From contig JAYWIR010000004.1 of NCBI GenBank assembly GCA_036172245.1, positions 1,860,001 to 1,924,000 on the forward strand: a stretch of DNA of 64,000 nucleotides, read 5' to 3'. The translations under genes were made by a program, and so were the position numbers. The stretch comes from Raillietiella orientalis. Lineage: Eukaryota. The notes beneath the pieces were generated by a model. The model saw only the letters and a list, made by a program, of their open reading frames with translations. It was not told where the DNA came from and searched no databases. Numbering within the stretch: position 1 is the stretch's first letter; each line of letters starts with the position of its first letter. Below, piece by piece: positions 33,321 through 64,000 of this stretch.

Positions 33321-35791
33321 ATACACACTCACAAGCCTCGGGAATTTTCCACAGAGGTAACGCAGGAAAACTGGCATTCTTCTCGACAACCACGCACAAA
33401 TGTTGACTTCAACGTTTGGATGGACAGACGGGCAATGCTGCGGTTCAGTGACACGACGTGTAGAGGACCCGTGGCACACAGAAACACATACAACACGCGC
33501 GACGAAAAGCAGAATTCCTGAACTGCTATAAAATTTTGGAAACGGGAAAATTGGCTGCTCTCAATTGATCCGTACTCAAGAGCGTTTCAAATGCTCAACT
33601 TTAACATTCTAGAAGCCGACAGAATTGCTCTTCGCATCCAAATAAATGAACTGAAGATCGGAGGAGGGCAAAAGGTGTCGAAAATCAGTCCCCAGGCAAA
33701 ATGAAGGCCTTCCAACGCAAACGAAATTATGAGAAAGAGCAAGAAGGAGAACAAGTAGAGGAAGCCTCATAATCTTGTCTTTTGAAAATGAAAATTCGAT
33801 TACACTTGGAAGTCACGAGTTATTGATACAAAAGCCGTCATTGATGACGCTTACGATTTTCTGAAGGATTACAGTTTTTCGCGGGAAAACGATACCGAAG
33901 AGGAAGAAAAAAAAAAACAAACGGTGGGCACAAATTCCAAAAGAGGATGCACTGAAGCATCTTCAGACACTGCCATGCATTACAGTTCAGTTAAATGAAA
34001 TCACACTTTCTTGCACACAGAAAAATGCATTTGTGCATTCCATCATTGCAGTCTCTGTGCGCCACATCGGTTTAAATCACTGCACATAAATACTTTCTTA
34101 TCTTGTCGCATTCTCTGGATGTTCTTCACCGTTGCGTGGGAATGTTCAACGAAATTTGTGGGATTCGGGAGGAAAACTGTACCTTGGGGCGTAGGAAGAC
34201 TGCGTCCGTGCAGATTTAATTCTCTCTCTTAAATATACAAGTTTATTAACATGGACAGAAGCAAAATAGACTCAGATCGCAAATTTTATAAAAAAGAAAA
34301 AAAAATGCAGCGACCAATAAAGGAGGTTCGCGGGTTTTGTGAAATTTTTCAGTTTTTGATAGTACCTTTCCCCCACATGTAACTATTTTGACAAATGATC
34401 CAACTTTTATTCCATATTGCCGTCTGCCACCTCAAACACTCAACATGAATTTCCAATAAGTATTTTTTTTTTCATCATATTTCTCTGAATAGAAGCACTT
34501 ACAATACTTACAAGTCTTGAACACATCAGAACTTTGATGCAAGTCAACATTTAGAAAAGAAAAAAAAAAAAAAAACGAAAACAGTAAGTGTTCAACACTT
34601 CCAAATTGAAATAAAAACGAGACACAGGATACAGACAAATACAACAAAACGATTTAATCAATTCTTTAAAATCATCTACATGCACTAATCAGGAGGGGAA
34701 AGGGCTGTGCCACCTGAATCAATCCTCTGATGCATAAAGTTCTCCTCCTGTCGTTCATTCTTGCTTTACTTTACGCAAGCAAAACAAAGGCCTTGCTTTC
34801 GTACCTTCGGGTTTCTTGTGCCAACTTTTATTGCTGTTTTGTGAAACCCTATAAACCCTTTTACTTATTTGGAATAATAATGAGTTTCACGAGGTCCTCT
34901 GATGAGAATTTGAATATCTTAACAAAGATAATTGGAAAAGGTAAAATATAACGCAACGAAAACGTGTAGGCAGGAAAAAAAAAACCACAGGTACTGACAA
35001 GGATGAAAGAACAATGTACACTGATATATTTCCATGTTTTCGCCATGGAGAAGCGATGGAAAACTTGAATCACAATTAAATTATTCATGTGAGCTCACCT
35101 AATAAAGAATACTTAGAGCTTGGAATATGTGCATGTACAATTGCTTAAACGCTTCACCAGAATTCAATCATAAATTACTGGAGCAGTCATTGATGAATAT
35201 AAGATAATTCTAGAAATGTGCAAGAACAAGAATATAAACTTACATATTAATATTTAACATCGTATCAACAAAACAAAGGTATATACAAAACAAATACACC
35301 AATATTTCTTCATTATGTTATAAAATCCTTGTATATTTCATTTTAGGTACTTATCACTTAACAGTGATGTAAGGAATCTAGAGCTGCCATATATCTGGCA
35401 ACCCTCCTAACACCATCAAAACTGATGTAAGTATCAGAAACATGCATGAAAATTACAGTCATGATTTAAAAATTGCATTTTAAGTAGTATAGAATTTCTT
35501 TGCAAAAAAACAGCATGTAGATATATATGGCTATTTTTCATAAGATAAAGCTACAGTCATCACGGGAACAATATAGGCATATGGAATCTCATAATAGAAA
35601 AGAAGGGTTTGCACAAAAAGGACGAGAGACAAGCACAGCCTGACAGCAAACACAAGCTCAGACCAGACACAAACAGAAAACCAGTGTTGGCTGCCATCCT
35701 CGTCCAAGACTAAGCACAACACTGAGAACATGAATGCCCAATTTGACTAGATCGCAGGGACTAGATGGCGATATCACAGAGAAAAGAATAG

Positions 35792-38382
35792 TTAAGAGAT
35801 GAACTGGGCAGGGTTGAAGTCTGGATTAACCATTGAGAAGCCCTGGAATTCATCCTGGTTGATAGTGCGCACTACTTCTTGATTGATAGGAGTCAGCACT
35901 GGATCCTCTTTGGTAAATTCTGTATCAAAATTGATGGCATCTCTTTTGCCTCTCTGAAAACAATCTTGAGACTACATACAATATTGATCACTTACTGTTT
36001 TGGGTCGAAAAGGAGGTTTAATTTTGCGCAATTCCAGAGCTTCCCAGTCCATAGACCTAAAGAAAGCATGTCGCCGAATAGCATATTCACCTCCTTGGGA
36101 CTCCACACAGCCCAGCCTTTTTGCTGGATTTTTGGTCATGAATCCCTTGAGGATAGCCACAGCATCCTTGCTTAACCAGACAGGATAAAGAACATCATCG
36201 TGCAAGATAGATTCGAAGAGATCATCTTCATTATCAGCCTCAAAGGGGGGCTGACCTGCCATCATTTCATACATGAGTACACCCAGGGCCCACCAATCCA
36301 CACTGCACCCATAATCCAGCTCTTGTAGAATCTCAGGAGCAATATAATCAGGAGTGCCACAGAAAGTGGATGTCAGCACACAATTTTTGATTCCTTCTTT
36401 GCACATTCCAAAATCAGCAATTTTACAATGGCCTTCAAAGTCAAGGAGAATGTTATCTAGCTTCAGGTCTCGATAGACCACACCATGATGATGCAAGAAC
36501 TGGAGAGCCAAAGTGACTTCAGAAGCATAAAATCGAGCCCTAGGCTCATCAAATTTGCGTGCTCTTTGAATCTGGAACATGAGATCACCACCATTGACAT
36601 ACTCCATAATAAAGAATAAACGATCCTGTAAGAATATAGGTCAAACACATTTCGAAATGTAGCACATACTTCAGTTTGGAAACAGGAATGTAGAGCTGTG
36701 AGAAAGGGATGTCGTGCTGATAAAGCCAAGATTCTTTTTTCCGTCATAGTGCATTCAACATCATCATCCTGGATAATAACGTCTTTTTTCAGAATCTACA
36801 AAATGCTTAGTGAACTACAGGAAACTTTTACAGTCTTTCACCTTCATTGCATACACTTCATCTGTGCCTTTCAATTCTGCCAACATGACTTTCCCAAAAC
36901 TACCCTTTCCCAACACCTTGATAAACACAAAATCAGATAACCTTGGAGTTTTGATAGCACCAGGTAAATCCACTCCACTTTCTAAAACAAATACTATTCT
37001 GCATAATGGGTTGTTCCTTTACCATTATATTCATTCTTTCTCAACACTGAAGCATGGCTTTCCTTACACTTCAATTCTCGTTCATTCATCACTTTCTGAG
37101 CAGCAATACGTAGCTGCAGTTCTTCCTCTAAGGCCACTCCAGATGTATCTGGAGGTAGCAGACTGTCACCCCGAGAGCTCAGACTCCGAGATAGAGCCAG
37201 TGGACTAGGAGTACTAATTGAAGGCTTCTTCTTTTTACCAACTTGCAGCTTCTGAGAAGAGATGCCAAGCATGGAAAGGATTTCAGCTAACTGCTTGGTA
37301 TTGATACCACAATTATTGGCTACATTCTTTACACATCTCTTATGAACATTCATGTTGCAAACTAAAAGAAAGTAAACCAATACCTTTAACATAAAAGAAT
37401 TTTCCTCACCTTTGCACTGTAAACCTTGCTGGAAAAGACCATAGAGTAAGGAACCACAATGATCACAAAAAGTGAATCGTTTATAGTTATGGACTTCAAA
37501 TCGGTGAGGAACGTTCACACTAAATCTCTGACTCATGTCTTCAGGACATATTTCCTCCATAGGAGCAGTCATTCCAGGGCATTTTGTTATCACATATCCA
37601 TGACAACGTTTATGTACAACACAAGTACACACTAGAAAAATACATCCATATAGCATTCACCAATGAATGCATTTATTTACCTTGGCACTGATACCCCTGT
37701 TTTCCCAATCCCCATATGAAATCTCGGCAATGTGAGCAAAAAGTAGGTTGTCGCAAAAACGTAGCCATAAACTTATGACCATTCACTTGATGTACACGCC
37801 TTCTCATAGCACCTCTTCGACGATTGAATCCTCCCCTCTCTCTGAACTCCCGTGGTTTCCCATCTGGCGTGTTAGGTTGCTCTACACAACAGTTATTGAT
37901 GCACAAAACGAATTTTTTCTACCTCGCAGATTCCAAGATTTCAATTCAATAATTACATGAATCTTTCCTTGAGGTTCCAAGTCAACCTGCCAAACAAAGA
38001 GAAACTTAATACATTGAAATCTTTTGAGCAATCTTCTACTGACCCAAATATCTGATGTTTCCTTATCAGTAAGATCTTCAAATGGAATGTTGCAATTAGC
38101 AACAAAGTCATCCGGTGGTATGGCTGCACTGTGGAATACAGTAAGCCCAATATTTTGTGCTTTGGTAACATTATAAGTAAAGCTTTCATTCCAGACAGGT
38201 GTCAAAGTTTTTGGCTTGGCAGATGTCCTATTTACATGAACTTCATCAACATCCACGGAAACATAAGGGTCCAGCATTTGAATTTCTCCTTTACTAAGGG
38301 GTATATTATGTCGAATCTGAAACTGTGTTGGCTTCAAATCAGATGCTTCGCATATCTTCACTTTAATATTTCCAGAAAACAT
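35792..38382 (-). CDS. Pkc98E: Protein kinase C, novel class (epsilon/eta; Pkc98E ortholog), 740 aa
   Basis: Exons 38382-38044, 37986-37923, 37881-37681, 37631-37410, 37361-37023, 36981-36842, 36795-36670, 36625-35996 and 35953-35792 give 2223 nt, all introns GT-AG and in frame. Domains: N-terminal C2 ([14 protein letters not shown]), pseudosubstrate [11 protein letters not shown], two C1 domains ([34 protein letters not shown]), [29 protein letters not shown], turn motif PVLTP. Confidence 0.96.
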
Positions 38383-39549
38383 TGAAAATGCTTGGATGCA
38401 AAGATATGTTACAGAACTGATACAGTCACTCAATTAAACTTGTAGAATGAATTATCTGGAAAGCAAATAGAAGAGACTCAAAACATTATTCTGATGATTT
38501 CCCTTAAATTTCAAAATAAACAAGAATCAGAAAATGATGTACCTTTGACAATGAAATCATACTTCCTATAATATGCATCTTTCAATTTCTTAAAATATAC
38601 ACGTGATGAAATAAATAATGTAAACATGAATGTAGATAAGCCATCATTAAATGTTGCATCGTAAAATTATTTCATTAGATTCCTATCCGATAACTTCAAT
38701 TACCACATTTGTTGAACAAAATATACACTTTCTATGCACATTTGCATTTCAATGTCTGAAACTAACAAACATTCAAGAATCAATAATCTCTTATTACATC
38801 ACACACTTTGAAAAATGCTTAAATAATCCCCATTCTTAATGTATATGTCCTGAAGGGAAACACAGGTTACTCATAAATCAATAAAGGAAAAGCCCCTGGT
38901 TTAACAGTTGTTAACACAAACAGAGAATACACGAATTTCTAATACTCTAAGACCAAGAAAATTCATTGTATCCCTCATATGATATACACTTAATTGAGCA
39001 TCCAGGCTCCATGATAACATATTGCGTGTTTTCTGAGAATCGAATAAACTCAAATTAATTCTTTTTGCTGTGACGACAAGGATATAATGCATTCATTAAA
39101 ACATGTGCAAACGTGTTAAAAAAAAAGTTATCTTCCATTCATTTGGCTTCGATGATTAAAGTTTCTCGCTCCAAAATTCCACCTTCACACTTTTTCACAG
39201 GGAATTATGCACCACAACTGCAATGTATCTCGACTATTTTGACACTTGCAATCTTTCATATCTTGATGCCACAAGGAACTGGGACATCAGTTATAAGAAT
39301 ACTGCAGCCCGGAAACCTTTTCCTTTTCGAAATTTCAAAAGGCTCACGATCACTTTCATGATTTCGATTCTGCACACAGAACACTCAAAATTGCACACAG
39401 ATTCTGCTTGTTTTCGTTTACGTTATCATCATGCAGTTGGAGTGGGAACAGTAATAAGGGAATAAATTACGACTAAGTAAAATTGTACCAACAAGAAAGG
39501 TTGGTCGGAAACGGATCAACTAATCCAGCATCAGAGATGCTTCCAAAAT

Positions 39550-39680
39550 CCTCCCAATAAGCCGGCCATTTCATCATACGTTCAAAATTGTGTGTGCATT
39601 AAAAACCAATAGCTTGAATTTCATATAAACCATAGATTACCCAGAGTTCCGTTCTAGATACATAATGGCGAATTAAACTG
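39550..39680. promoter_or_regulatory. Candidate bidirectional promoter between PKC and ISCA2
   Basis: Lies between the head-to-head genes. CCAAT boxes at 39554-39558 and 39605-39609; YY1/Pho-like cores in opposite orientations (GCCATT 39565-39570; AATGGCG 39664-39670). Confidence 0.4.
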
Positions 39681-40755
39681 ATGTGGAAATTGATGTGGAA
39701 TCTCAAAGAGGTTTGCACAACGTTGAGCAAGCGGCGTGCTTTTCGTTATAAAGGTATATTATCTGTTGAAAATATACATTCATCCCGTAATCACACTTTC
39801 TAGAATGCATAGTGGTTTCATGAAGCATGTTAACTCAGCTGAAGATGGCTGAGCATATGCTTGTATAAAAAATTCATATGTTTGCAATGGAGTTTGCTTA
39901 ACGATAATAGCACTGCCTTTTCCCATCCTTTACTCTTCTCTGTATTTGGTGGTCGGCAATACGAAGGCTCACCCTCGGTCAATAACTTCGTCATCTCACT
40001 ACTAGCACGCATGATAATACTAACATGACACACGAAAATGCAAATTCAACTAATTAAAGAGTGATTTACCGACATATTTGTTCGTACAATCCTCGTTTAC
40101 GGCTCGGTAAACGCAATTAGATCCTATTAATAACGTTCCCATGATCAATTCCGACTCGAATTGAAGGATCTGCAGACACGAAACGCGACCAGGATGGTGA
40201 GCATTTCCCATTAGACGCCACACATTGCATGATTGGTTGAATAAAAACGAGTAGTCGGAGGAACAGATGATTTATTAAAGCAGTTTACATTTTTAGGGCA
40301 CCAAGCTTGGAAGTTCATACGCATCGCCCGTTGAATCAGTTGAACAAAGGCGATGATCAACTAAAGTTTACTCAGAACTGCATCCAGAAATTAAAAACAG
40401 TGTGCAACGATGGAAGTAAACTACGTGTATCTGTTGAAGGAGGAGGATGTTCTGGTTTCCAGTACAAATTTGAACTTGTAAATGAAATTGAAGAAAATGA
40501 CAAGTAAGACGATGTATGCCTGCTCACTTATCAATTTCTGAAAGGGTATTTCAACAAGACCAAGTGAGTGTTGTCGTTGATCCCAGTTCACTGGAACTTC
40601 TCAAGGGTGCAATACTGGACTATCATGAAGAGCTGATTAAATCATCCTTCCGTATAGTAAATAATCCTCAAGCTGAACAGGGATGCTCTTGTGGAATTTC
40701 TTTTGCTATAAAATTTCCTTTCAGCCAGGAACCGCAGAATAAACAGAATTCCTAG
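39681..40755 (+). CDS. ISCA2: Iron-sulfur cluster assembly 2 homolog, mitochondrial (A-type carrier), ~167 aa
   Basis: Core exons 40284-40503 and 40545-40755 (41-nt intron) encode LRVSVEGGGCSGFQYKF, VVVDPSSLELLKGAILDYHEELIKSSF and NPQAEQGCSCGISF. Tentative exon 1 (39681-39753; MWKLMWNLKEVCTTLSKRRAFRYK, presequence-like) joins in phase 1 to an AAG/CAG tandem acceptor at 40280/40283. Exon 1 is less certain than the core. Confidence 0.9.
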
Positions 40756-43700
40756 CATTTGGCTTTTTTCTTCGAAAAGATTTAATTTTTTCCAGCAAGT
40801 TCACTCATCTTACCTTAATTTGTACCTGGAATTGCAGTTGTTCATTAACCTCAGTTTTGGCCGCCAACTGTTGATTCATGTGGGCCAAATGATCAGACAT
40901 GGTTGCCAATTGACTGCTGTAGTTATCCGCTGTTGTGCTAAGTTCTTCTTGAGACTTTAATAAGGCTTGCTGACAGTGCTCTAAATCCTTTTTCAAACCA
41001 TCTTTGCTTTGCTGCAGCAATTCAACTCTGCACTGTAATGCCTGGCATTCTGCATAGAATGCTACTAGTTTGCTGTCCATCAACTGCGTTTTTTCAATAT
41101 AGCCTGAGATCCGCTGATTGAAATAGTTTTTCAGTTGCTCCTCCTCATATGTACACAAACGTGCACACAGCTCCTGACATCATAAATAATAATACTTTTA
41201 TTATGCAGGGGTCACCTGTGTTTCCATTTTCATACACGAGATGCAGATGTTATTATTGGAATGTTCCCCCTTCTCATGGTTGCTGAGCAAGTTCTTTACT
41301 TGTAATTCTAATGCTTGACTTTTCTAAACAGAATAGCATAATGCCAAGTCAATCCAGCTTACCTGATCAGCCTTTTCCAGTTTTATGCTACACAGCTGAT
41401 ACTCCAACATCCAATGTTCTTTCTGCTGCTTCAATTTAATTACTTTCTGTTCACAAGTATTCAGTTCCTCCTTTATTTTCTGAAGTTGGTTATTATCACT
41501 ATTCTTCTTGTGCTCAAGTGCCTCTTGATAAGGTACACTGACAGGCTCCTCCTGTAAAATATGCTAGCTTGACTCTTAATAATGCATGAGACCTCTTGCA
41601 GGTTTTGCAGATACTGGATAGCTTTCTGAAGGAGCTCACTGGTTGAATCAGCTGCAGGGAGCATATAGGTTTCGTCTGCATTCTGTGGAATGTAGTTCTG
41701 GAGATTTACTAGGATCTACATCAATATAACAGAAATAAGAAGTTCCTTTTAATTTACCTACCTTATCCACACATTCTGCTAAATGAATCAAATCAGTCTG
41801 GATGCATAAATCCAAATGCTTCTGCTGCTCATCAGCCACTTGCAAACTGATAATTTCCGTAACTTTGGACACAAAAGCTGTCTTCAAAACTGCATGGCAT
41901 GACTATTGATTTTATTTTATTTCTTTCAACTTTTACCATCAAAATTGGTATTCAGAAGTTTCATGTTTTTCATAAGTCCGTCAACCGCAGATGAATTGAA
42001 GCAACTATGGTTGTCTAGCTCTTTGTTTACACTCGAATATTGTTTGTTATCATGGTGAAAAACTCACCATTTTGAATTTTCCTTAGTTGGCATGCAAGTG
42101 TTTGCAGTGTAGCATCTAGCTGCTCTAGGGCAGCATGAAATTCCATTGTATGTACTTCAAGAGACAAAGTAAAATAGGGGAATGCACACTCAAGTGTCAG
42201 ACTAAATTAGATGATGAACATCGTATGCTGAAATTTTTCCTATACCTTTTAAGAAGGAGTGGCATCAAGCTATGATGATAATCAACCCAGTTAGAAAAAG
42301 CATCTTGTAATTTCTCGAACTTCTGAAATGCTTGTCGAGTGACCAATGGATTTTTCCTGACACTATCATGCAAAACGGAAACTTCTCTTTCCAGTGGATT
42401 TAAATAGATAACATGAGCACTTAGACTCTGCTGCAACTGTATGACAATTTTTGCTGAAATGCTTCCCTTAGACATCTTATACTTGACTCAGATCTTGAGG
42501 GTCCATGTCATCAACAAATATAAAATGCATCCGCTGCTCCAAATGTTTGTAGAAAGAAGCCATGTACGAAACAAACTGTTTACTTAAGCTCTGCACAACC
42601 TCCATCAGCTGTCTTAGTTGTGCACCATAGAAAGTATAACCAGGTGGAACATTTAAGGCGCATGTAACAGGATAATCTAAGAAATCCAGTTCTGCAAGCC
42701 ACATAGGGAATAGAAATTGCAAACCAGTGCATGCAAGGGGAAAATTGGTTTTTAAAATTTGAGTTGCCATGTGGTGTTGTGACTCCAGTCTGTCCAGCTT
42801 GCTTGTTAACATCTTCTGGCAAAGATGAGCTTCTTGCAACTGATTTAGCAAATTCAACTCTTGATTATGTAAAAGAATTGCCTCTTGTTGCAGTTTGTTG
42901 ACAGCTTCCTAAAATTACCATTTCTCATGATGGAAAGAAAACAGTAACCACCTCAGGTTGGAAAAAAAAACAATAACCACCTAGGGTTGGATCTTTATTT
43001 CAGAAACAATTTTTTCATGTGCAATGGAGGAATGTTGTATGGTTTCATACTGAGGTCTTAATGCATCCATTTCTTGCATATAAACTTGCTGCCTTTCTGA
43101 AATCTGAATCCACATCTATGCTGAATAGGATTTCATCGCAGATCTTGTACATGCATCCCACCTTGGAAATGGGTTTTTCATTTTCCAGTATTTTATTTTG
43201 TAATTCTTCTTGAAAGACATGACATTCAGCATTATAACTAGCTTGGGATACATCAAGGATTCCTTAACTTTGCGTGTTCTTTCTAACCATCTGAAATGAT
43301 CAAAATTCAAATGAACTATTTTCAGAGGTACCCACTGGAAAGCAAAGTTTCTATCAGTAACATCACTGATTATAGAAATTAATTATCAAAGGTCAGGAAC
43401 ATACTAAATTTGAAGCCTACATTTAATAAATACCTATTAAAGAAAACTTTTCGTTTATAATCTTCCACCCTCACCACATGCTAATATTTATTACACAATA
43501 ACTACTCTGAATCCTGGGTTGCTCCCTCACCATTACATTCATGTTTTTTCAACACTGAAGAGTAGCTCTGTTTACAGATCAATTCACATTCATTCATCAC
43601 TTTCTTAGAAGAAATACCTAGCTGTAATTCTTCTTCTAAGGCCACTTCGGATGTAGCTGGCATCAAAGATTCCTTTAATTTTCGTCTTCTTTCTAACCAT

Positions 43701-44578
43701 CTAAAATGATCAAAATTCAAATGAATTAATTCAAAGGTGCTCACTGGAAACGAAAGTTTCTATCAGTACCATCACTGATTACAGAAATTGATTATGAAAA
43801 TTTGACATATCTTAAATTCAAAGCCTACATTTAATGGATAGCCACTGAAGGAAAATTTTCAGTGATATTCTTGCATTCTCACCACATGCCAATTTTTTAA
43901 ATTTGTTGCAATACTCATTTCCTAAGAATTAATCAAGATGTTTTATGTACCCGTGATTCCAGTTCACTAAGAAGAAATTCTATCCTTTTTGAAAGTTGCT
44001 GGTTTCGAAAATTAAGACTATCAATTTCTTGATCCTTTCTTCTTATTTGCTGATCATTTTCAATACACTGTTTCTAGAAAAGCATAAAGTTTTCGTAATT
44101 TTAACTTCCCAAATAAAAAGGAACCATTGTTCCGTGTGCTGTTTTGATGAGGTTTCTCGTTTGTGAAACTATTCCTTTACAAATGATTGAGTACAGCAAT
44201 TCAGGAGAAACACAAATACTAGTACTGCAAATTCATGCAAGATTCAGTAAATTTCTCATAAAAATTAAGCATGCAGCTACTGTAATTACTGATTCTATAA
44301 GCACATATGAAGCTTAATCTTTGTTCTAAGAGTATATTCTAATGCCAACAGTAATAATAGGAACCCCATTAACTTTTGATGCTTACTTTATTCTCTGCAA
44401 TAATATTCTGAGCTTCCGCCAGTGCCTTTTTTAACAGAGCATTTTGAGCTCTAGCCTAAAATATGTCATAAGATTAAAAATATGTACAATGCTAACCACT
44501 TTTAACCTTTGAATACTCAGATGCAAGTTTTTGATACTTGACTTTCATATCGCTGGGCAAATCGATCTCTTTTTCCAT
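40752..44578 (-). CDS. PPP1R21: Protein phosphatase 1 regulatory subunit 21 (FERRY complex scaffold) homolog; exons 4-5 carry nonsense codons
   Basis: Exon 1 44578-44507 (MEKEIDLPSDMKVKYQKLASEYSK), exon 2 44455-44387 (ARAQNALLKKAL), exon 3 44073-43951 (KDQEIDSLNFRNQQLSKRIE). Later motifs ALNVP, SVPYQEAL, KEHWMLEYQL, DSKLVAFYAECQAL and YSSQLATMSDHLAHMN match PPP1R21. The frame is intact from the exon starting at 42908 onward. Predicted last exon 40769-40752 (KKAKC*) after a 44-nt intron; if unspliced, the ORF ends at 40805. Confidence 0.88.
43251..43898. repeat. Diverged ~240-bp direct duplication of the PPP1R21 intron 3/exon 4 junction (43251-43490 and 43661-43898) flanking the PKC fragment
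   Basis: Shared blocks such as CATCAA(G/A)GATTCCTT, TTCTAACCATCT(G/A)AAATGATCAAAATTCAAATGAA, AAAGTTTCTATCAGTA, AAGCCTACATTTAAT and TCACCACATGC at an offset of ~408-410 bp. Confidence 0.9.
43501..43660 (-). pseudogene. Duplicated fragment of the PKC gene (3' part of exon 5 plus most of intron 5) inserted inside PPP1R21
   Basis: Gapless alignment to 36993-37152; my hand count gives 129/160 identical (~81%). Encodes [42 protein letters not shown] versus [45 protein letters not shown]. Confidence 0.92.
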
Positions 44579-46669
44579 TATACGCAGATTTTTATCATTT
44601 AAAGTTAAGTCAAGGTAACAAACTTGTGCATTTTCCTTTATTCCTTTCCTTTCGAATCTTGACACCAACGATAGTCGTCATGCTTCTTACTCTTACTGGC
44701 TCATATCTGTCGGCAGATTCAAAATTCACTTTGCCCTTATGCAGGACTCTACACGCAAGAGGATAAGTAATCCTTTGATATCAAATAAGATATTGATTCA
44801 GTTCTGCAAATGCAAATATGGAATTTCGACATTCTTATTATCGAGTGTACAAACGTTTTAACTACTGATACTATTCATAAATACTTAATGAAAACATTAA
44901 AATACTTTTTGTGTAAATAACATACAATGCTGAGAGATGGCAAGATTCACAAAATAATAATTTTGGATCAATCGGAAAAATTCATTCTTCTCTTATGTTT
45001 GGACATTCATTTTTGTAATATTGAGCTGCATAGTTTATGCCATTATTGAAGCTGCAATCAATGAGAATCTCTCTCCTGAAGTGATATGAACTGACAGTTA
45101 CAAAAGAGTGAAAAAATACTAATACAATGTCTAAGAATAAGTTATCTGAATAAAAAATGAAATCATTATTTTAGTTATGAAAATCGAATGCGTATCCAAA
45201 AGCATTTCCTTGGGAGAATCGAGCTCATTTTCCCATTCTTTCTCCACAATTTGTAGCGAAAAGTGACTCTATCATTCAGAGGTCAAAAAAAGGCATTTAA
45301 AAACATGTTTGAAACAGGCACCTTTCAACTACGAAGTTTATACAAAAGCGATTGAATATAGAAAGGCATGGGATTGAATGGGGACTTTTGAATCGATTTA
45401 ACACGAATTTTTGTCTTTTTCGTGCTTAATGATATTGAAAAAATCACTTTGAGAGCCACAAGAATGACTGCATGGGGTGATCTTTCTTGAATTTTTCGTA
45501 AACGGATAGTTCTATGTAGTATTTTGCTGTGCACCGATTTTTGAATATAATCTAAAGGCTTCCTGAATAAAATCTTTTTAAAAATGAAACCAGTTTTGAA
45601 AGATTTAAAAATAATCAGTGAATATTTCTGCAAGGATTATTCCATCATTCTCTGAGGTATACAGTATGTGACGTAAAATATTGCTATCTAAGGTGATAAA
45701 ATTCAGTTGGGAGTGTACTTCTGCTTTGTTTTCGATATGGGAGATGATCATTCTCCCGTTTTTCGAAATTAAATTGAAGGAATTTGAATACCGAAAAAAT
45801 ACAAAGCAGCTTTCAGCAAAGATGCAAACTTATATTGCGACGCTTCGAAATACCAGATTTAGAGAAAACGCATAAGTAATGAATTTGGTAAATTTTATTT
45901 CCTAATAAGGTGAGTATCTCTGATGATTATGTGAAAATACTACAATATAAAAAGGGTGTATGACAAATCAGAAAGCTGAATCTGGTCCACATTTGACTGT
46001 GAGAGTATTCCAAACAGTTACCCTTTCCTCACATACAAGATGAGATACACAGTCCATTTCAATGAGAACATAGTTCTTCAGAAGTAAATCACGAAAAAAC
46101 ATCCAAGAAAAGAAATTATTTTACAGGAACGACCAATATCATAGTTCAAACTCTAAGCTGAAAGCAACTTCATAAGTGTATACAAGCCTCATTTCGGAAA
46201 ACGTACGTAAGTACTGAAAAAATTTTTGCGTTTCTACTGTTCATTTTCGTACCACTTAATTGATTTGTGGAGCTGACTATACAAAATTTTTATTTTTATT
46301 TGCTCGACTGCTGTTATACAAAAATGGCAGGTCTTTTTATTCAAGTGATATTTATCTTTACCGTCAAAACTCCTCCAAAATTAAACAAGAATTCAAGTCG
46401 TATCAGCCGTATGTCAAGCTTTAGAAGTCATTAAGGAAAACTCTATTTTTCATGAAGCGCATCATCAAATCATCAATGAAAACCCTGCAAGTTCCTGAAA
46501 GGTTTTCTTTTAGATGGTACTCCAAAAAGTCAAATTTGTTTGTGTATAGATCTGGTAATCCTCTTATTTGTAGACAAAAACTTTAGGAAGTCCCGTGATA
46601 TGTAGGCGTAGCATTTATTTCCTGCATAACTTTGCTACAAAAATTCCGAATTCTGTAATTGCACTAAAT

Positions 46670-54629: not shown

Positions 54630-57600
54630 GTCATCCACGCTTTGGAGAAGAACTCGAGTGCTCGTCGATAAAGCTAAAGATTCTCAAACTCACTTCCGAT
54701 CCCTGAATCAGTCGGTCAACTTCCCGTTGGCCAAAACGCAGCACAAAACAAGAGCAACGAATGGATCCTATGTACGGAATTAAAGCTCCATACAGCTTCC
54801 CCACAGTCCATCGCAGATCTCCGAAGACGAAGATGCTTCCGTCATAGCTGGGAGCAAAGATTCTTCGAGCACCACGAGCATTTTTATTTATAATCAACAA
54901 GAGCCTCAAATAGCTAGCAGCAGCCAACTGTCGATTGCTGCGAAAGTGACTCCCGTATCCTTCCTTCCTTTACATCACGTGTTGAGGATGAATGGGAAGA
55001 CAAAAGGGAAACGCCAGCCTGCTTTTGAATCGGTCACCAATTTCTCTGCGATTTTCATGCTGGCTGATGACGAAAGTCCTTCTAACGCTTGTGCACTACC
55101 GATGGAGCCAGAAAAAAAAATTCAGATTATCGTTTTTTCCTCTTTTAGTTGAGTTTGCTGATCTTGAAAAAGCGAAGGCGAAATTTCCAGAAATAGTCAG
55201 AAGGAATTCTTGAATTCCACAGAAAAGCCTTCCCGACGAAGCACCCAGTAGCAGGTGGAGAATTTTTGCTCTCTCAGTCTCTTCTTGTGTTTGCATTCTC
55301 AAGGAAAGGCCACGCATCCAACGTTCAGAACCCTGCTGTTCCGATTAAGCGATGGCTTCGAATTCTTCGGGTAGCTCAAAACAGACTCATTTCTCGTTTC
55401 TCACAAAGTCCTGACGTTACGGACGACGTGCGCTGCTCGAATTACTTGCTTTCGACAGGGAGGGAAGAGAAGGGGGGGAAATTTGCTTTCGGTTCCTCTG
55501 AAGAGGACGGAGGAATTTCGCGACAGGAGGACACTGCTCGGAAACGTGCTCTTATTCGTCCCGGGATGCTGATGGTGCAAGGCCGCTTCTACGGATGGGA
55601 ATGACTTATAGGTCGAGCCACAGAATGTTTTCCCCGTCGCTCAGCTCACGAAGCGGCGCAACGCACTGAGGAAACTGAACAGAACGAAATGCGCTCAGCG
55701 ACCACGAAACGACCGACTCGATTTTTCTAAAAGAAAGAAAAAGAGACCTTCAGGGTTCGCACTTGCACTTTTGGATTGCAGCCTTCTGGAACGGCAATGG
55801 TTCGTCGAAATGGATGCATCTAGAGACGCAAAGCTCGCCTACCTTATGTCATCCGCAGCAAGCTTCTTCAGGATACCCTGAGAGTGCCCTGCAACAGACC
55901 TTTCTCGTGGAAAATCTCTCACGCAGAACGCGCAAGGTTGACATTCCACTGTTTTGCTGTATGGTCCGGATGCCACGAGTTTTCATAGGCCCAAAAGATA
56001 CTCAGAATGCACGATCGCTGCATCTTTTGCTCAAAACCCAAGCGTGCCCTTGCGAAGGAAGTGGTTCGTGTCAGTCTCATCTTCAGGGTCATTCGGTATT
56101 AGAAGAACCTCATTCTCTTGAGGAGTGACATGTAGCTGATGCGCACGGCCATCATCATTTTAACTCTGCATGACATCACACGTGCGTAATGATAATCATG
56201 AAGTAAAGGAAACTGCATTCATTAATTTTGTCTGCGGGCAGAGTTACATGGCACATGGAAAACTTCGATGATTCGGATCATTTCTTTTTTTTAAAAAAAA
56301 AAAAACAGGTGGCGGCGGTTTTCTTTTCTCTTCCTCCTTCGCTGTTTTTTGTAGATAGAGGTATTGGATGAGATGCCTGTTGCTCCTTCTCCGGCTTCGA
56401 ATCTATGATGACACCTTCACGCTGGAAAATCCAAACGGGGAGCAAACGAGCATCTCTGGAAATCTCCTCTCCCTCTCTGGAACTGCTCTTGATTGTGACC
56501 CATCAACCACCTCCCGTACTGCAAGAGCTGCTCAGAGGAAGCAGTGAAAGCTTCTCGACGCTAGAGGACGTCAAAGTGCCTTGCTGATCTTTCCTGAGGA
56601 TGAGCCGGATTGCCACTTCCCTTTTAAGGGGTTCCTCCTGCCACTTGGAGAGAAGATAGCCGTAAAGTGAACTGGGAAGATGGGTCCAAGGGGATGTCGA
56701 CCTCTCGGCACTGTGCGAACGATGACTACGAGACAACCCTCGTCCGGGCAGGCCTATCTCCGAGAGACCACAGTCTTCGCCCTGTCTGCCACGGGTGCTC
56801 AGCATCTTGATGTTCAGCACCAGAGATGAGTTCTTGCTCACGCTATCTGGGGCAGCGAGAGAACGTGCGTTCCGTGCGTTTTCGGCACGAAACCGAGAAA
56901 CGCCGAGAGAACGCTTGCGAAATGGAGAATTCTCGAAATGTCTTTTGATTTTCGTCAAGAAAAGACGGTCGCTGTCATGAACCGGAAACAGAAATGCGGA
57001 CTGGTTTCTGGATGGCAACGGTCTCGGAGAGTAATCACGGGTGTATTGGGTAACCGCTGTAGGCGAACGAACGAGAATTTCTTTGCTCATAACACGTCTC
57101 TGGGCTGATTGGCTTTTGCCATCTGCTGCACACGAACCCTATACTCTAAAACTTCGAAGCAGCGTTAGGTGGATGAGGAAACACCGCACATTCCGTCTAA
57201 AAGCAGGCATCAGCGAGCACTGCTCAAGTTTTTCAGTGCCAGCGAGCACGCAATTCTCTCTCCGAGGAGTCTCCTGGCACAAAGGAGTTCTCAGGCCTTT
57301 TCCCGCCCTGGAAGCGTGGGGTTCTGGTCTCCCGGGAAACCTACAGGATCATTGCAGGTGCGATTTACTCGATCGTGGCTTATGACCTTTCCTTCCGTAG
57401 CTACCAAGGCAGCAAAAGCTTGGAAAGGAAGCTTGTCTGTGGAGAATCCAGTCGACTTCCAGTAAGTGGTAGAAGGAATGCCGACCATTTGCCGGTGGAC
57501 GTAGCAAATGTCCTCTGCAACTCGGAAAGGAAACATTTTAGTAGCATCTAGGAAAGCAATCACCTAATTGGTTTACTGGCGAACGTGTATCGATTACCTA

Positions 57601-58260
57601 ATCGTCACACGTTTGCTTAGAAATCCGTCCGTTGCCAAGTTTAGGATTCGTGGAGCTTCTGGTGTTCGACTGGAACCTCCGAATCTTTCCTGTGTCTTCT
57701 CGAGAATCCCTGTTGAAGGCTTCCATAGGAATTGGTCCGCTATGGGAGGAGCATTTCGTTCTTGCTCTCTTCGTTCTTTCTGCTCGTGAGCTCTCACAGG
57801 TACATCAGCTCGGATGCAAGAACGATCTGTGCCTCTGGACATCGGCTTCACCGGGATGAAAGTTCGAAACGTGGAAGCCTCTGTAGCGCTCCTCCTCTTC
57901 CAGAACCCTTCGGAGCTGCCGTGGAAAGAACTCTTGCAATGTGCTCTTCTCCTACGCTAGCTGACCGAGGCTCCTAAGTGGTCAAGAAATCGGCTCTCTC
58001 GAAGTTACGGAACTCCAAGTTTGCAAATGGATGATTCCGTGACACCTCTCCCCCTCTTTCACCCCGAGGTCGGACTCTCCGTGAGCCGAATTTGTCCAAA
58101 CTCCTCCTTCTGCAACACGTGTATTCTGAAGAACTCTCATTCTAGCAACTGTCCAGCACCAGCAAACGCCGCTACCATGTCACGAGCTCACCACTCTTTG
58201 CGATCTTTCGGTGGAAAGAAACGCTCGCTCAGCAGGACGACCGTTTGCGTCCCATGAGAA
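54630..58260 (-). mobile_element. Degenerate DIRS1-like retrotransposon (second copy, opposite strand)
   Basis: FFPPKDRKEW (~58200), FGGSSRTPEAPRI (57594-57851), IAFLDAT...GF...VGFPG (cf. YLDD...GF...FLG; 57291-57563), LYGY (~56660), and recombinase-like YLRL...RRIFAPSY...SIRCS (54631-54927). Confidence 0.5.
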
Positions 58261-59756
58261 CCCACTGGCACTTGGCTACGTTGACGACGTGGGAAAAAGT
58301 GTAACAAATCCTCTCGGGAGGAAGGTTGGTGTTCCCGAGAATCGAGGTCTACCGTCAGTGCAAAACATCTGGCTTTTCCGGCAGCGCCAGTCTTCCACGC
58401 CTCCAGGACCTTTGTGCCAAGTGTGCTATTACGCAGCGCCCCCCTTGATGCCAGCTTCCGGACACTCCGGGATGGCCACCTTTGCAAACGCCTTCTTCGT
58501 GTCGGGAAGATTCTCGGCGCTGTCCCGAAGGCGGACTTTTATTGGGTGAAAGGACTGTGACCTGCATCCCGTGAATCGAAAGGCGCACCACCATCGGGAG
58601 GACAATGGTGGTGTCCCCTTGCGGCTGGTAAAAGCTATTCATGATGCCGAGACGCGGCTTATGAGTTTGCCGAGGACGGAGCCGCCGGGCTACATGCAAG
58701 AGCGGGTCCAGAAGATCGCACACACTGCGCCTATCCCTCTTCGAGGCCGCGGGGCGTGTCATCTTCGTTTTCGAGGACGGGAGGCGATTCCCGGCGCGTG
58801 CGGGCGAACACAATGAGGACGACAAACGTCTGCGTAATCTCTTCGTGGATTGGCGAGCGCAGCAGCACTGGATTAGAAAAGGAAAGGAAGCAACAACAAA
58901 GAGGACTCTGCTTTCTCTCAGCGCGCGCGCTTGTTTATGTTTTCCAGGAGGAGGGCGCGCGGCCCGCGGGAGCGAAGGAGAAGGGGGGAGGGAGGGGAAG
59001 GAACTCGTGGTTGATTCCTTCCGATCTCTTTCTCTTCCTTTTCAGAAGGAAATTTCCCCGAAGTGAGCGCACGGAGCGTGATGGATACGCTTCCACCCCC
59101 CTCCCCCCTCTGTCCCCCTCCCCCTCCTGAGAAAGTCGTCTGGATCGCAAGTCTTCATTTCCTGCCTTCGAACGGGGGAGACTGACGGGCTCGCCTGCTT
59201 AATGGCAGTTCCACCTGGAATCCAAGTGGCAAGGAGCGCGCGCGGAAGCGGCGGTTGGTTCGGCTGCACAATTACGGAGGATCCGCAGCTGCCTCGCGCG
59301 CGCTCTGCAAAGTGCATAAAATAAATGGTTCGCGTATGGTGGGACCGTCTCGGGCTGGGCGCGTGCCAAGAAGCGATTCCTCTGCGGTCAAAGTGTCTAT
59401 ATTTAGGCGCAAAGGCGCTCAGACCCTTCATTGGGGAATTCGGATGCATGAACGCTCGCTTTCTTGCAGCGATGCACATTAATGTGGGCAAGTATGTGTG
59501 ATGAATGAGGATTCCAGATAGGGTAGTGAGGCGCGGGATCTCCGGGAAGGAGGCGACGGCTCTCCTGGCAGCGTGCCGGAACGGAGAAAGCGACTCCGCC
59601 GGTTTCCCATGTGTTCGAGGAGGAGGGAGGGTGGCTTGAGTTCGTCTGGATTGATCTGTCGAAGATTTATGCGTTCGTTTATGCATTCCGAAAGTTGATC
59701 TATTTTAAAACGTGGTCCTCCGGGGCATGTGCTTCTGCTCACCCCCACCCCCCCTT

Positions 59757-59780
59757 CACACACACACACACACACACACA
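59757..59780. repeat. (CA)12 microsatellite
   Basis: Direct reading of the sequence. Confidence 0.95.
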
Positions 59781-60099
59781 CCCTTCCTCCTCCCTCCTGC
59801 AACTAAACGCCTCCCGTAAATTAGCTTCCAAAGGTTGCCTGGTCCCCGAATAAACAGGAGCAACCTTAATCCGGCTCGCATCATCCGTTCCTTGTTCCGG
59901 GTGGGTGGCAGCTCAGGCGAGCCATGCGCGTCGCCCCGCTAGCTCATGCTCGGTAGGTCAGTTTCGAAGACATGCGTCCTGGGAGACGGGGGGGATCATC
60001 AAGAGTTTTACTCTCCTTAGACTTCAGCTAGCAGCACGCACCATCTTGGGGCTTCTTGTCTCTTTTTTTTTTCTTTTTTCTTTTCTGGTGTCGAGCAGG

Positions 60100-63000
60100 A
60101 GGGCGACACGTCCTCGAGCAGCCCGGAGCAGTCCGCCGGAGAGGCGATGCACCCGGTTTGCTTCCCCAGGAAAGGAAACCCGCGACGGGAGCGAAAGGAA
60201 GTCCATCTCCTCTGAGGAAGGAGGAGCGCCAAGATCCAGATGCGGTGCTCCCCGGAAATGACCACTTCCAACAGATGCTCCCATCGGTTTTTTTTTTTTC
60301 GAGGAGCTCCCTGGACCGTTCGATCTCGCCGCCTGGCAGATGGAGTTCGGGGAGCGAGCTCTCCCGGGATTTCTCCTCGAGGGTCTTCCGTCACCACCCG
60401 CCGGAAGAGGAGGCAGCAAAGCTCCAGTAGGGTTCGCGGAGGGGCAGCGGGTCCTCGCCAGTGTCCCTTCGTCTCCCGGAGACGGCCATTGGGGGAACAG
60501 GCCTGGCTCTCTGCTTTGCTCTGCTCGCCGTCGCATCCGGAAGCGATCCTATCCGATCAACGATTCCTCTTCCGGAGATCGGAGCCCCCGTCTCCAGGCC
60601 AACTGTTTTTTTGACGCAGAAGGGGGTCTAACGCCGGCCTCTCAGGCACCTGGAAGCGACCTGGAAGTTGATCCTCCGGCCGCTACGCGATTCCTGGGTG
60701 CTGGAAGAAGAGAAGGAGTGCACGACGAGAATCCAGCATCCCGGCGGAGAAGAGAACGTTGGTAGCACGTGGTCGCGTCATCAGAAGCGTCTCATTCGCG
60801 ATGTGTTCCTCCCCCCTCCCCCCCCTCGATGGGAACGGCGGTCGGGAGCAGGTGCAAGCGAGGCCTTTGGACCCTTGTTCCAGGAGGGAAGACGCATTAT
60901 CCCACGAGAGATGCCGCCCGCTTCGCGGGACTCAGACGCCTTCCTTAGAGGTGTCTCGTCTCCTCCGGGCGTCGGATTTTTCTGCAGAAGACCCGGTGCT
61001 AGTCACAGGGCCCCACAAGGCTGCACGAGCAGCGGCAGATCGTCGGCATCCGGGGGACGGCCTCTCGGTTCAGGGAGCTCGTGGAGGAAGGGTGGCGCTC
61101 TGGCTGGCGGCATCGATAGTGCGCGCAGCTCGGGGAGTCAAGAACGGGCGAGGCCCCAGTCTGGGGAGTAGGCGCGTGGGTCTCCTCGCAAGGAGCTGGG
61201 AGCATCTTCACCGAGATCCTTGGGCGGTGCTCCCTGCAGAGAGAAGCCGGCGGTGGGCTCGAGTAGAGGGGAGAGTCGAGAAGAGGAGGAGAGGGCGCAG
61301 AGAGCCATAGCCCCCTTTCTCACATGGCGCGTAACCGATGCCATAGGAGTGCGAGGAAAGGAAGGGCGCGCCCCCAGGAGTCTTCCCTAGGAGTCTTCCT
61401 TACAAGTGCAACTGAGAGCAGGCGGGAGGAGGAGGAGAAGGAAGTGCGGATGGACGAACGCGATTCCGGAGGCTCGGGGCGCGCTGGAAACCCGGCGATC
61501 ACCTGCTCCATCGTCGAGTTGGCTTGCATCACGCTGGCGATGAGGGGTCGTCGTACGCGCCACCCTTATTCTGGGCGGTGACACGTCCTTGCCGCTGCTC
61601 CTCCCCCAAGAGGACTTCCGTCGGAAGGCGGGTTGCGCTTGCATGCCGGGGAAACCCTCACACCCCTCCTCCCTCTTCCGCAGATTTCTGCGAGACAGAC
61701 GCCATCCGGAAACTGCGACGGAAGGGAACCCCTCGGGGAGGAGGAGCAGCCCCACTTCGCAGATGCGATCTCGACAAGGCCCTTCGCTTCTCCCTCTGAA
61801 AGGAACTCTTCCTCCCTCCCACGCCACCTCTCCCAGCCGACGTCTCTTTGCGCCGCTTCCTCCGCTCCTTAGACCTCCATGATTGGGATGCTCGAAGCAT
61901 GCGAGAAATGGTGGGGGTTGTTTCGGGGTGGAGAGAAAGGGGAGAAGTTCGTTTGGCCTCCAGAGAGAAACACACCGAGGTGCGGGGAGACTATGTGGAC
62001 CTCGGCAGTCCAAGGTGCGCCTCTTTCTCTTTGACAAAAATCAACGTAAGTCGCTCCCTCCATCCTCTCATCTCCTTCTTCGTTCAGAAGGAGTCTCCGT
62101 AAGAGTCTCCAAGAATCACTGCTTGCCTTTAGCTCTTGCACCAATTGCTGACCACTTGTTTTGGCTTCGGTCAAAATTGCGTGTGGTGCCCATCCCTGAT
62201 GTCGCATTAGTACACTTATGCTTGTATATCTTTCCTTCTTCTCTCGCTTTTATTTTCTTCTCTGCAACTTGATCCTCACGGCGCAGCCCTCGGGCACAAG
62301 AACACGCGCAGATCATTTTCTTCGGGGGCGCATCCGCTTGCAAAGTGAGCAGCCGTCACGCGTTCAAGTGTGCCACCTACACGGACGATAACAGAGGATC
62401 CTCAAGCGTCGATCTGCAGTACTCGCGCGTGAACTGACACGCGGCACGTATTCCCGAAGCCACCGCCTGGACTCACGCCTCGCACACATCGCAAGCAGGT
62501 GAGCGTGCACGCGCTGAGAGGTGCACGCGTAATGTCCTCTGGTGCACACGCGGGGGTGGACGGCTGCTGCAACGCACAGGAGGTGAGCAGGCAGGCACGA
62601 AAGAAGGAACGAGCAGGCGATGGATCTTCGACAGGCATCTTCCCCTCTGCTGCCTGCTCGGAAGGAGGGGATCTGGCTAGATGCTGCCGCTTCGTGCAGG
62701 ACTCTTCCACTGTCACAGCCAACCGTCCGGATATTGGGGATGCTTCGATCTTGAAATACCTCTGCTTCTCCTTCGCCCACCCTCCCTTCCTCCTCCTCCA
62801 GTAGAGAAGGGTCGGCTGCGGAGGTCTCTCCTGGTCATCACAGTCCATCCTATGAGCGTCTTTCCCTTCCTTCTGAAGAATCATTGAGGGAATCTCGTGC
62901 GTTAGCACCTGTGAGTCCAGTAGGTCGTGAGGGAGAGCCACCCGCGTGCACCCGCTGGTTCCTCGCCATGTCCCACCCTTACCTCTATCCCTGACCCTCA
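60100..63000 (-). mobile_element. Degenerate Ty3/gypsy pol relic (RT-RNaseH-integrase)
   Basis: HRMDCDDQERPPQP...IEASPISGRLAVTV (RT start), ELKASSDSWRLL...ATYVDF (RT core), EQVIAGFPARPEPPESR...LLSVALV...WGRALPF...WHRL (RNaseH; 61320-61532), and GHFRGAPHLDLGAPP (integrase start), in gypsy order. Confidence 0.55.
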
Positions 63001-63052
63001 GCTCTTGCAAAGACTCACGTATGCGCGCAGGATATCTCTGTTGTGAGGTTCT

Positions 63053-63440
63053 CCATGAAGGGAATTTGCCATTCACTGCAAATGGATGCGTAGGGAAGAG
63101 GCGCAACAGTGCAATAGTGAACTCTGCTCATGTCGAATCGATTACAAAACGCAAAAGTTGCAAATTTGGACCACATCAAGAATCAGTGCGAAGGAAAACA
63201 TTCCCTATGTAATTCCGACACTGGTTACCATGAAAACAACACAGAGTCCAAAGTGCCCCGCCCTAATGAAGTTTGGGACTCTTCTTAATGTCACTCTGAA
63301 TCCTGGAAATTGGAATGCTGAGCGGCTTTCCATGACGGGAATTTGCCATTTACTGCAAATGGATGCGTCGGGAAGAGGCGGAACAGTGCAATGGTGAAAT
63401 CTGCTGATTGCAAATTGATTACAAAACACAAAAAGTTGCA
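63053..63440. repeat. ~110-bp diverged direct repeat pair (63053-63162 and 63330-63440)
   Basis: CCATGA(A/C)GGGAATTTGCCATT(C/T)ACTGCAAATGGATGCGT(A/C)GGGAAGAGGCG(C/G)AACAGTGCAAT...GATTACAAAAC...AAAAGTTGCA occurs twice, offset 277 bp. Confidence 0.9.
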
Positions 63441-64000
63441 GCTGCAATGTTCACAGCCTGGGAACCACGGTCTCCTTATCAGAAGGCAGTAGCAGTCCCT
63501 TAAGCGCTCTCATTGAGCAGCCTCTCTGCAAGCCAGGGACTTGACCTCAGACCGACAGACTCCAGGATCTGGACCATCATCCTTACGTCGCCTACTCGAG
63601 GCATTCCTCCTATCGTCACGCAATCGGAGGGAGGAGGACATCCGAATTACTTCCTGGAAGAGGGGACAGAGGGAATGCTCCCCCTTCCCCTAATGCTGTG
63701 CGCCCCCGTGAGGCAGCCTGGCAGGGGCCTCCAGGGTGGGTCACTGTGCCGCTGAGTTGCGAAGCAGAAGGGGGAGCCAGGGAGGGAGGCAGTCCGCGAT
63801 CTTGTGAGTTCCTCTGGAACTCACAGATTCCTCTCCCGACCCTGAGTTGCAAACTTCCAGCTCCTCTGCGTTCTTCTTCGGACAGCTGTCCTCTAGGGAA
63901 CTCTCCGGGGCACCTCTACGTAGGGAAGGAGTCATCGCGAGCATCCGCGTCCCCACGCGCAACCTTCCTCCTGTTGCCTCGAAATTCCCTGCAAGCCCCC

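Follow-up and report, generated by a model that had tools for sequence, protein, structure and literature searches.

The PPP1R21 gene of Raillietiella orientalis lies on the minus strand of a 64,000-nt stretch of contig JAYWIR010000004.1 (assembly GCA_036172245.1, positions 1,860,001 to 1,924,000; hereafter the window, in whose coordinates all positions are given) and carries two in-frame nonsense codons, one in exon 4 and one in exon 5, in an otherwise open coding sequence. Our preferred reading, held tentatively at a probability of about 45%, is that this copy represents a recent loss-of-function state, either a young pseudogene or a null haplotype. A preliminary description of the locus had listed a young pseudogene and a null allele as alternatives to a gene that survives by skipping exons 4 and 5; we retain these candidates and reverse their order, ranking loss of function first and skipping below it.

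Under the loss-of-function reading, changes of AAA to TAA (codon 97) and of GAG to TAG (codon 176) would have put premature stops in exons 4 and 5. The best-scoring splice sites would include exon 4, and hence the TAA, in the mRNA, and the truncated product would lack both the helical core and the C-terminal domain, the latter being the part of human PPP1R21 that binds Rab5 and the other complex subunits. The 1-kb interval around these exons already held rearrangements that are old and were tolerated, namely the 410-nt insertion in intron 3 and the duplication of 29 nt at the exon 5 donor; they did not cause the stops and serve only to preserve older codons. The stops would be recent, because the rest of the gene is intact and exons 4-5 appear undiminished in their likeness to orthologs.

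The PPP1R21 gene model and its two stops

Exon borders were set from reading frame, homology and GT-AG boundaries, and were checked by coordinates. Splice sites were scored with donor and acceptor position weight matrices (PWM) from only 18 introns (ten of PPP1R21 and eight of a neighbouring protein kinase C gene, PKC; all GT...AG, 17/18 of them 34-57 nt long), which are weak instruments, with leave-one-out scores spanning 0.0 to 9.6 (donors) and -9.3 to 9.1 (acceptors). The features that bear on the two stops are these:

40805-44578, minus strand: PPP1R21, 14 exons, 766 codons plus stop (Pfam KLRAQ and PPP1R21_C, collinear tblastn matches, spliced coding sequence of 2301 nt)
43951-44073, minus strand: exon 3, 123 nt, phase-0 end; donor at 43951 (CGG followed by GTACAT), PWM 1.5
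43162-43290, minus strand: exon 4, 129 nt, phase 0-0, encoding HVFQEELQNKILENEKPISK / HVFQEELQNKILENEK; acceptor at 43290, PWM 7.1; donor at 43162, PWM 7.4
43264-43266, minus strand: TAA, codon 97, in exon 4; AAA at the matching codon of the upstream copy (copy A, below)
43120, minus strand: out-of-frame CAG before exon 5, PWM 5.8
42981-43115, minus strand: exon 5, 135 nt, phase 0-0; acceptor at 43115, PWM 3.4; donor at 42981, PWM 0.4
42981-42983, minus strand: TAG, codon 176, closing exon 5 and immediately followed by the GT donor
42488-42908, minus strand: exon 6, 421 nt, phase-0 start; acceptor at 42908, PWM 2.7

Joined by coordinates, the 14 exons gave 2301 nt, or 766 codons and a terminal stop at codon 767, and the only in-frame stops before it were the TAA and the TAG. 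Exon 4 begins on the minus strand with ATG GTT AGA AAG AAC ACG CAA AGT TAA, and a GT donor follows directly past the exon end. Phase 0 holds throughout exons 1-5 and at the start of exon 6. These results agree with the preliminary description, which had placed a TAA at 43266-43264 (AAA in the duplicate) and a TAG at 42983-42981, called exons 4 and 5 phase 0-0 between a phase-0 end at 43951 and a phase-0 start at 42908, and found the other exons intact. The local duplicates indicate that each stop goes back to one base change, AAA to TAA in exon 4 and GAG to TAG in exon 5, and orthologs have E or D at the site of codon 176. A reassigned genetic code was rejected, as TAA and TAG occur in frame just twice in 766 codons.

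Two nonsense codons are disabling mutations of the kind that mark a pseudogene, and the stops at codons 97 and 176 leave the gene without the uninterrupted frame expected of a PPP1R21 ortholog. Relaxed constraint along the whole gene, the other mark of a pseudogene, was not seen, as the 2037 nt outside exons 4 and 5 held no further lesion. Both stops are in frame and in exons that are collinear with orthologs, which supports loss of function.

Support from reads came from one public run (X1; probably DNA; 8% of sampled words) that may be the assembly's own sample. Two informative contigs of 151 nt each fell within 42400-44800, both with zero differences to the assembly: 43155-43305 (depth 5), which contains the TAA, and 43800-43950 (depth 3). 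Since the run may come from the assembly's sample, the match excludes a consensus error at the TAA without proving independence. The TAA is real, and at least one stop is thus genuine.

The identity of the gene follows from its domains and its collinearity with orthologs. Exon 3 alone matched the KLRAQ N-terminal coiled-coil domain (PF10205; E 1.3e-10, 42 bits, cut-off 27.3) and the last exon the C-terminal PPP1R21_C domain (PF21636; E 1.2e-22, 81.1 bits, cut-off 27.3), while exon 7, as a single-exon query, stayed below the cut-off of 25 for the central six-helix bundle (PF10212; E 3e-4, 21.1 bits). PPP1R21 orthologs of 700-800 aa matched the exons collinearly and in order by tblastn. The protein is a divergent ortholog: among 1.84 billion representatives searched, the best relatives were 41-42% identical in the C-terminal domain and none reached E 1e-30 with the last exon, and a named relative, a basking-shark protein, had 37% identity in that domain. 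A search with exon 6 for close relatives found nothing, and a PDB search with the exon 4 frame gave no relevant match. The one locus from a metagenome scan (L001) matches over only 28 residues and was rejected as a PPP1R21 gene.

Two very short introns, of 34 nt (42454-42487, minus strand) and 37 nt (41683-41719, minus strand, donor GTAGAT), are needed for the PPP1R21 frame and for collinearity with orthologs. The 37-nt intron is the least certain border of the gene model.

Splicing and conservation of exons 4 and 5

The leading alternative is that exons 4 and 5 are skipped in frame, the mRNA joining exon 3 to exon 6 to give a protein whose N-terminal coiled coil is shortened by 88 residues, with the two exons free to gain stops. 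We consider this unlikely, although the arithmetic given in the preliminary description holds: joining 43951 to 42908 keeps the frame, removes 88 codons and leaves a product open to the normal stop. The exons are symmetric (129 + 135 nt, with all four boundaries in phase 0) and exon 5 is weakly defined (3.4/0.4), its acceptor being outscored by the out-of-frame CAG. Bypass of nonsense codons by in-frame skipping is documented for CEP290 in the available text of two reports (PMC5482330, PMC6562928).

The distribution of the stops also favours skipping, and it weighs against loss of function. The remaining 12 exons have zero stops and zero frameshifts over their 2037 nt. For two random stop-creating substitutions, the chance that both hit exons 4+5 is p = 0.015, and the chance that both hit some skippable unit (a single internal exon, or an adjacent pair, that can be removed without loss of frame) is p = 0.064. 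This clustering fits a model in which only the exon 4-5 interval is exempt from selection, and it is unusual for a segregating null allele to combine two nonsense changes in one haplotype when the rest of the gene is perfect. On the same side of the balance, read support extends to the TAA alone, the TAG lying outside the read contigs. In the ranking, the clustering and the intact remainder were weighed against exon 4 splice sites, short introns, exon 4-5 conservation and a low prior for a constitutive double skip.

Splice sites. Exon 4 has strong sites (7.1 and 7.4) and is therefore expected in the mRNA, whereas the pair that skipping would join is weak (1.5 at the exon 3 donor and 2.7 at the exon 6 acceptor), all on matrices from 18 introns only. 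Introns 4 and 5, at 46 and 72 nt, are like the 34-57-nt introns elsewhere, and from their size we infer splicing by intron definition, which favours retention and in which skipping is rare. The exon 5 acceptor TAG (43116-43125, minus strand) stands beside a CAG 5 nt upstream that outscores it (5.8 vs 3.4), and use of the CAG shifts the frame into a stop.

Stop-free paths. At a lax threshold (sites scoring > 0), 6130 GT-AG paths from exon 3 to exon 6 were in frame and stop-free; 771 of these retain the VFQEELQNKILENEK stretch, and no stop-free path retains more than 65 nt of exon 5. The plain join of exon 3 to exon 6 ranked 5521 of the 6130 by per-site score. Chance alone thus supplies many in-frame rescue paths, of which none is outstanding, and the enumeration is without discriminating power. 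Smaller repairs within the exons failed as well. Exon 4 has no phase-0 acceptor past the TAA (the AG sites there are all phase 1 or 2) and no internal GT..AG pair that removes the TAA in frame (the pairs span 25, 46 or 50 nt, lengths not divisible by 3). Splicing at the second copy of the exon 5 donor was rejected as a rescue, as the TAG would be read through and the frame shifted. Taken together, the strong exon 4 sites, the short introns and the lack of a uniquely good stop-free path lean towards loss of function.

Conservation. We scored candidate products against a profile of 53 aligned N-terminal ortholog sequences, with stops scored as X. The canonical product scored 186.6 bits, against 157.5 with exon 5 skipped and 134.7 with exons 4-5 skipped, so that skipping both exons costs about 52 bits and removes a VF.E.LQ.KI.EN motif kept in nearly all aligned orthologs. 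Segment scores against an ortholog profile were 108 bits for exons 1-3, followed by 17, 5, 36 and 266. The share of exons 4+5 in the total was 0.054, rank 18 of 40 orthologs with a leave-one-out median of 0.057, which gives no sign of extra decay in these exons, at low power for neutral drift of about 10%. As there is no sign of long neutral drift, the stops would be young, which argues against exons long relieved of selection by skipping and for a recent loss of function.

Old duplications and the neighbouring genes

The duplication next to exon 4 is part of a composite 410-nt insertion in intron 3, laid out as unit, filler, unit. The unit comprises the last ~199 nt of intron 3 and 40 nt of exon 4, and the filler derives from the PKC gene 6.5 kb away. 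A second, smaller duplication spans the exon 5 donor.

43661-43897, minus strand: copy A (upstream), end of intron 3 and first 40 nt of exon 4 (43700-43661), AAA for TAA; acceptor at 43700, PWM 6.4
43251-43489, minus strand: copy B, end of intron 3 and first 40 nt of exon 4 as in the canonical model
43487-43660, minus strand: PKC-derived filler, hinge exon end and most of a 41-nt intron; strong donor between 43531 and 43530, PWM 7.8
36979-37152, minus strand: source of the filler in the novel-type PKC gene (end of the V3 hinge exon, 41-nt intron)
42934-42991, minus strand: 29-nt tandem duplication across the exon 5 donor, 86% identity (TRF period 29, 2.0 copies)

Copies A and B share 80.8% identity over 239 nt, and the filler is 79.3% identical to its PKC source over 174 ungapped nt, differing at 24/129 exon positions and 12/45 intron positions, with a synonymous divergence (dS) of 0.42. 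Read in the PKC frame, 29/43 filler residues are identical to PKC. The hinge segment is collinear with the hinge of a thrips PKC (16/43 identical; E 1e-4 in a single comparison), which is consistent with a segment native to the PKC gene. A dispersed repeat was rejected as the origin of the filler, since the segment is native PKC hinge and the window has only three repeat pairs at E < 1e-10: copies A and B, the filler and its source, and one unrelated pair at 63 kb. The omega of 0.40 for the filler is expected when only the PKC side is constrained and is no evidence for a coding copy.

These divergences bear on the suggestion in the preliminary description that the loss of exons 4 and 5 was possibly triggered by the adjacent duplication, which is not supported. 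The 239-nt unit has a Jukes-Cantor distance (K) of about 0.22. Stop-creating changes in the coding sequence number 384, about 5.6% of possible substitutions, and over half that distance a neutral coding sequence would be expected to gain about 14 stops. The 2.3-kb coding sequence has otherwise stayed open since a duplication now about 20% diverged; PPP1R21 was thus under selection long after the insertion, which argues that the insertion was not the trigger of a recent event.

The insertion offers a further way around the TAA, in which exon 4 would be split: it would begin at 43700, with AAA, and the insertion would be spliced out as a new intron, rejoining past the TAA. As an example, joining 43700-43618 to 43237-43162 (83 + 76 = 159 nt) is in frame and stop-free, and the TAA would never be translated. 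We find this improbable, and the TAG remains and would need another explanation. The upstream copy encodes MVRKKTKIKG, closer to the basic cluster of orthologs (GKKNKKS, RVKKGKLKS) than the MVRKNTQS* of the canonical start, and the five differences between the copies in the first 40 nt of exon 4 all change the encoded residue; by chance, a set of five without a synonymous change is expected about 1 time in 3. The profile is nearly blind to the choice of exon start (187.5 bits for the upstream start, 186.1 for the 83+76-nt path, 186.6 for the canonical product), and we rejected it as an arbiter of the two starts, which lie 0.9 bit apart. The donor and internal acceptor that the split would need are weak (1.1 and 1.9) beside their strong rivals at 43531 (donor, 7.8) and 43290 (acceptor, 7.1), and the path ranks 110 of 649 three-exon paths in an interval where in-frame paths are common by chance.

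Around their acceptors (43687-43725 and 43277-43315, minus strand), copies A and B are 38/39 identical, against about 80% overall (permutation p = 0.008). Either selection on both acceptors, with the upstream copy recognised as an exon, or a short gene-conversion tract could account for this block; the former would favour a split exon 4 and the latter would not. A second kept block (43750-43795 and 43341-43386, minus strand; 87-93% identity) contains a 6-bp inverted repeat (ATCAGT..ACTGAT) that is identical in both copies, and it has no Rfam match.

The PKC-derived donor is the best of the interval. Paired with the acceptor at 43700 it bounds a pseudo-exon of 170 nt, which meets a stop when read in the frame of exon 3. 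This pseudo-exon, the out-of-frame CAG and the exon 5 donor of 0.4 are further weak points of the interval, and we count them for loss of function. Taking the splicing escapes together, a gene kept alive either by a constitutive join of exon 3 to exon 6 or by an upstream exon 4 start with the insertion (PKC piece included) spliced out is possible, if on balance doubtful. In either escape, the old local duplications would, with the same doubt, have been the raw material for re-wiring the exon structure.

At the exon 5 donor, copy 1 of the 29-nt duplication (42991-42963) reads CAA CCC TAG and copy 2 (42962-42934) CAA CCT GAG, each followed by GT. The TAG thus sits inside an imperfect tandem duplication, beside a run of nine T, a context regarded as error-prone for assemblers. 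One stop, most likely the TAG, may therefore be an assembly or base-call error, leaving a locus with one nonsense change or none. There is little to recommend this: the depth-5 contig establishes the TAA, and consensus errors do not typically take the form of a diverged 29-nt duplicate. An N-terminally shortened protein made from a downstream start, by re-initiation or from an internal promoter, with the N-terminal exons dispensable, is very improbable, as exons 1-3 are intact with a strong KLRAQ match, although everything past codon 176 is open and exon 6 has in-frame ATG codons.

PPP1R21 lies in an AT-rich island of about 9 kb (35.7-44.7 kb, 35700-44700; 32-41% G+C in 2-kb bins) between GC-rich stretches (55-66%; 1-28000 and 56000-64000). 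A Pfam scan of these GC-rich flanks gave no match, and the long open reading frames present there in all frames are spurious; the unrelated repeat pair (63039-63162 vs 63316-63440, 125 nt, 85.6% identity) is also in a GC-rich flank. Scans of the window for tRNA genes and Rfam families found none. With introns of 34-57 nt, the genes of the island are compact; there are three, PPP1R21 and two neighbours:

35790-38433, minus strand: novel-type protein kinase C (PKC-epsilon-like), with C2, C1 and kinase domains
40271-40755, plus strand: ISCA-like iron-sulfur assembly gene

The kinase domain of the PKC matches arthropod, hemichordate and priapulid proteins equally well, at 82-89% identity. The PKC-epsilon-like gene and PPP1R21 are on the same strand, 2.4 kb apart. 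Both are presumably on human chromosome 2p, and their adjacency may be an old conserved linkage. The ISCA-like gene and PPP1R21 converge, with coding ends about 50 nt apart (40755-40808), and their 3' untranslated regions must therefore overlap or be very short.

Comparison with known systems

Tandem duplications with templated filler at the junction are products of replication template switching or end joining. The intron 3 insertion resembles them in its 239-nt unit duplicated 410 nt apart and in the 174 nt from a gene 6.5 kb away at its junction. It differs from fresh events in that its copies are old, about 20% diverged. It would make a tidy small case of local template switching, with a piece of one gene, including a splice donor of working appearance, carried into the intron of its neighbour.

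Human PPP1R21 (Fy-2) is described, in the available portions of two reports, as the scaffold of the FERRY Rab5-effector complex, with coiled coils upstream of residue 226 and downstream of residue 540, the C-terminal one binding Rab5 and Fy-1/Fy-3 (10.1101/2021.06.21.449265, 10.1101/2021.06.20.449167). The gene described here has the same domain order, with the KLRAQ N-terminal coiled coil, a helical middle and PPP1R21_C, and a similar length (766 aa vs 780 aa in ortholog P0001). It differs from orthologs in its two premature stops and in its low identity, only ~37-42% in the C-terminal domain, the part that is best conserved. Termination at codon 97 would deprive the protein of all that complex assembly requires, while an 88-residue in-frame deletion would only shorten the RNA-binding arm of the FERRY scaffold. 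The make-up of the complex differs among animal lineages, and insects and some nematodes are reported to have a three-part assembly with a short Fy-2 (10.1101/2021.06.20.449167); we counted this variability in favour of loss of function. A broken or null copy would be one more case of gene decay and would matter little, beyond a hint that PPP1R21 and FERRY are dispensable in this lineage. An expressed copy rescued by skipping would test in nature what portion of the Fy-2 N-terminal coiled coil is required, and would represent a fixed in-frame exon-skipping bypass of nonsense outside human disease genes.

Like a young unitary pseudogene or a segregating null allele, this PPP1R21 copy is an otherwise intact, intron-containing gene with single-base nonsense changes, at its native locus beside the PKC-epsilon-like gene. 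Unlike these, it has two stops and no other lesion, with both stops in adjacent symmetric exons. For skipping, the closest known analogue would be CEP290, where basal exon skipping and nonsense-associated altered splicing are described in the available text of the reports cited above (PMC5482330, PMC6562928). The two cases share nonsense codons in frame-keeping exons of a long coiled-coil protein. They differ in that two consecutive exons would have to be skipped here, between very short introns and despite the strong sites of exon 4.

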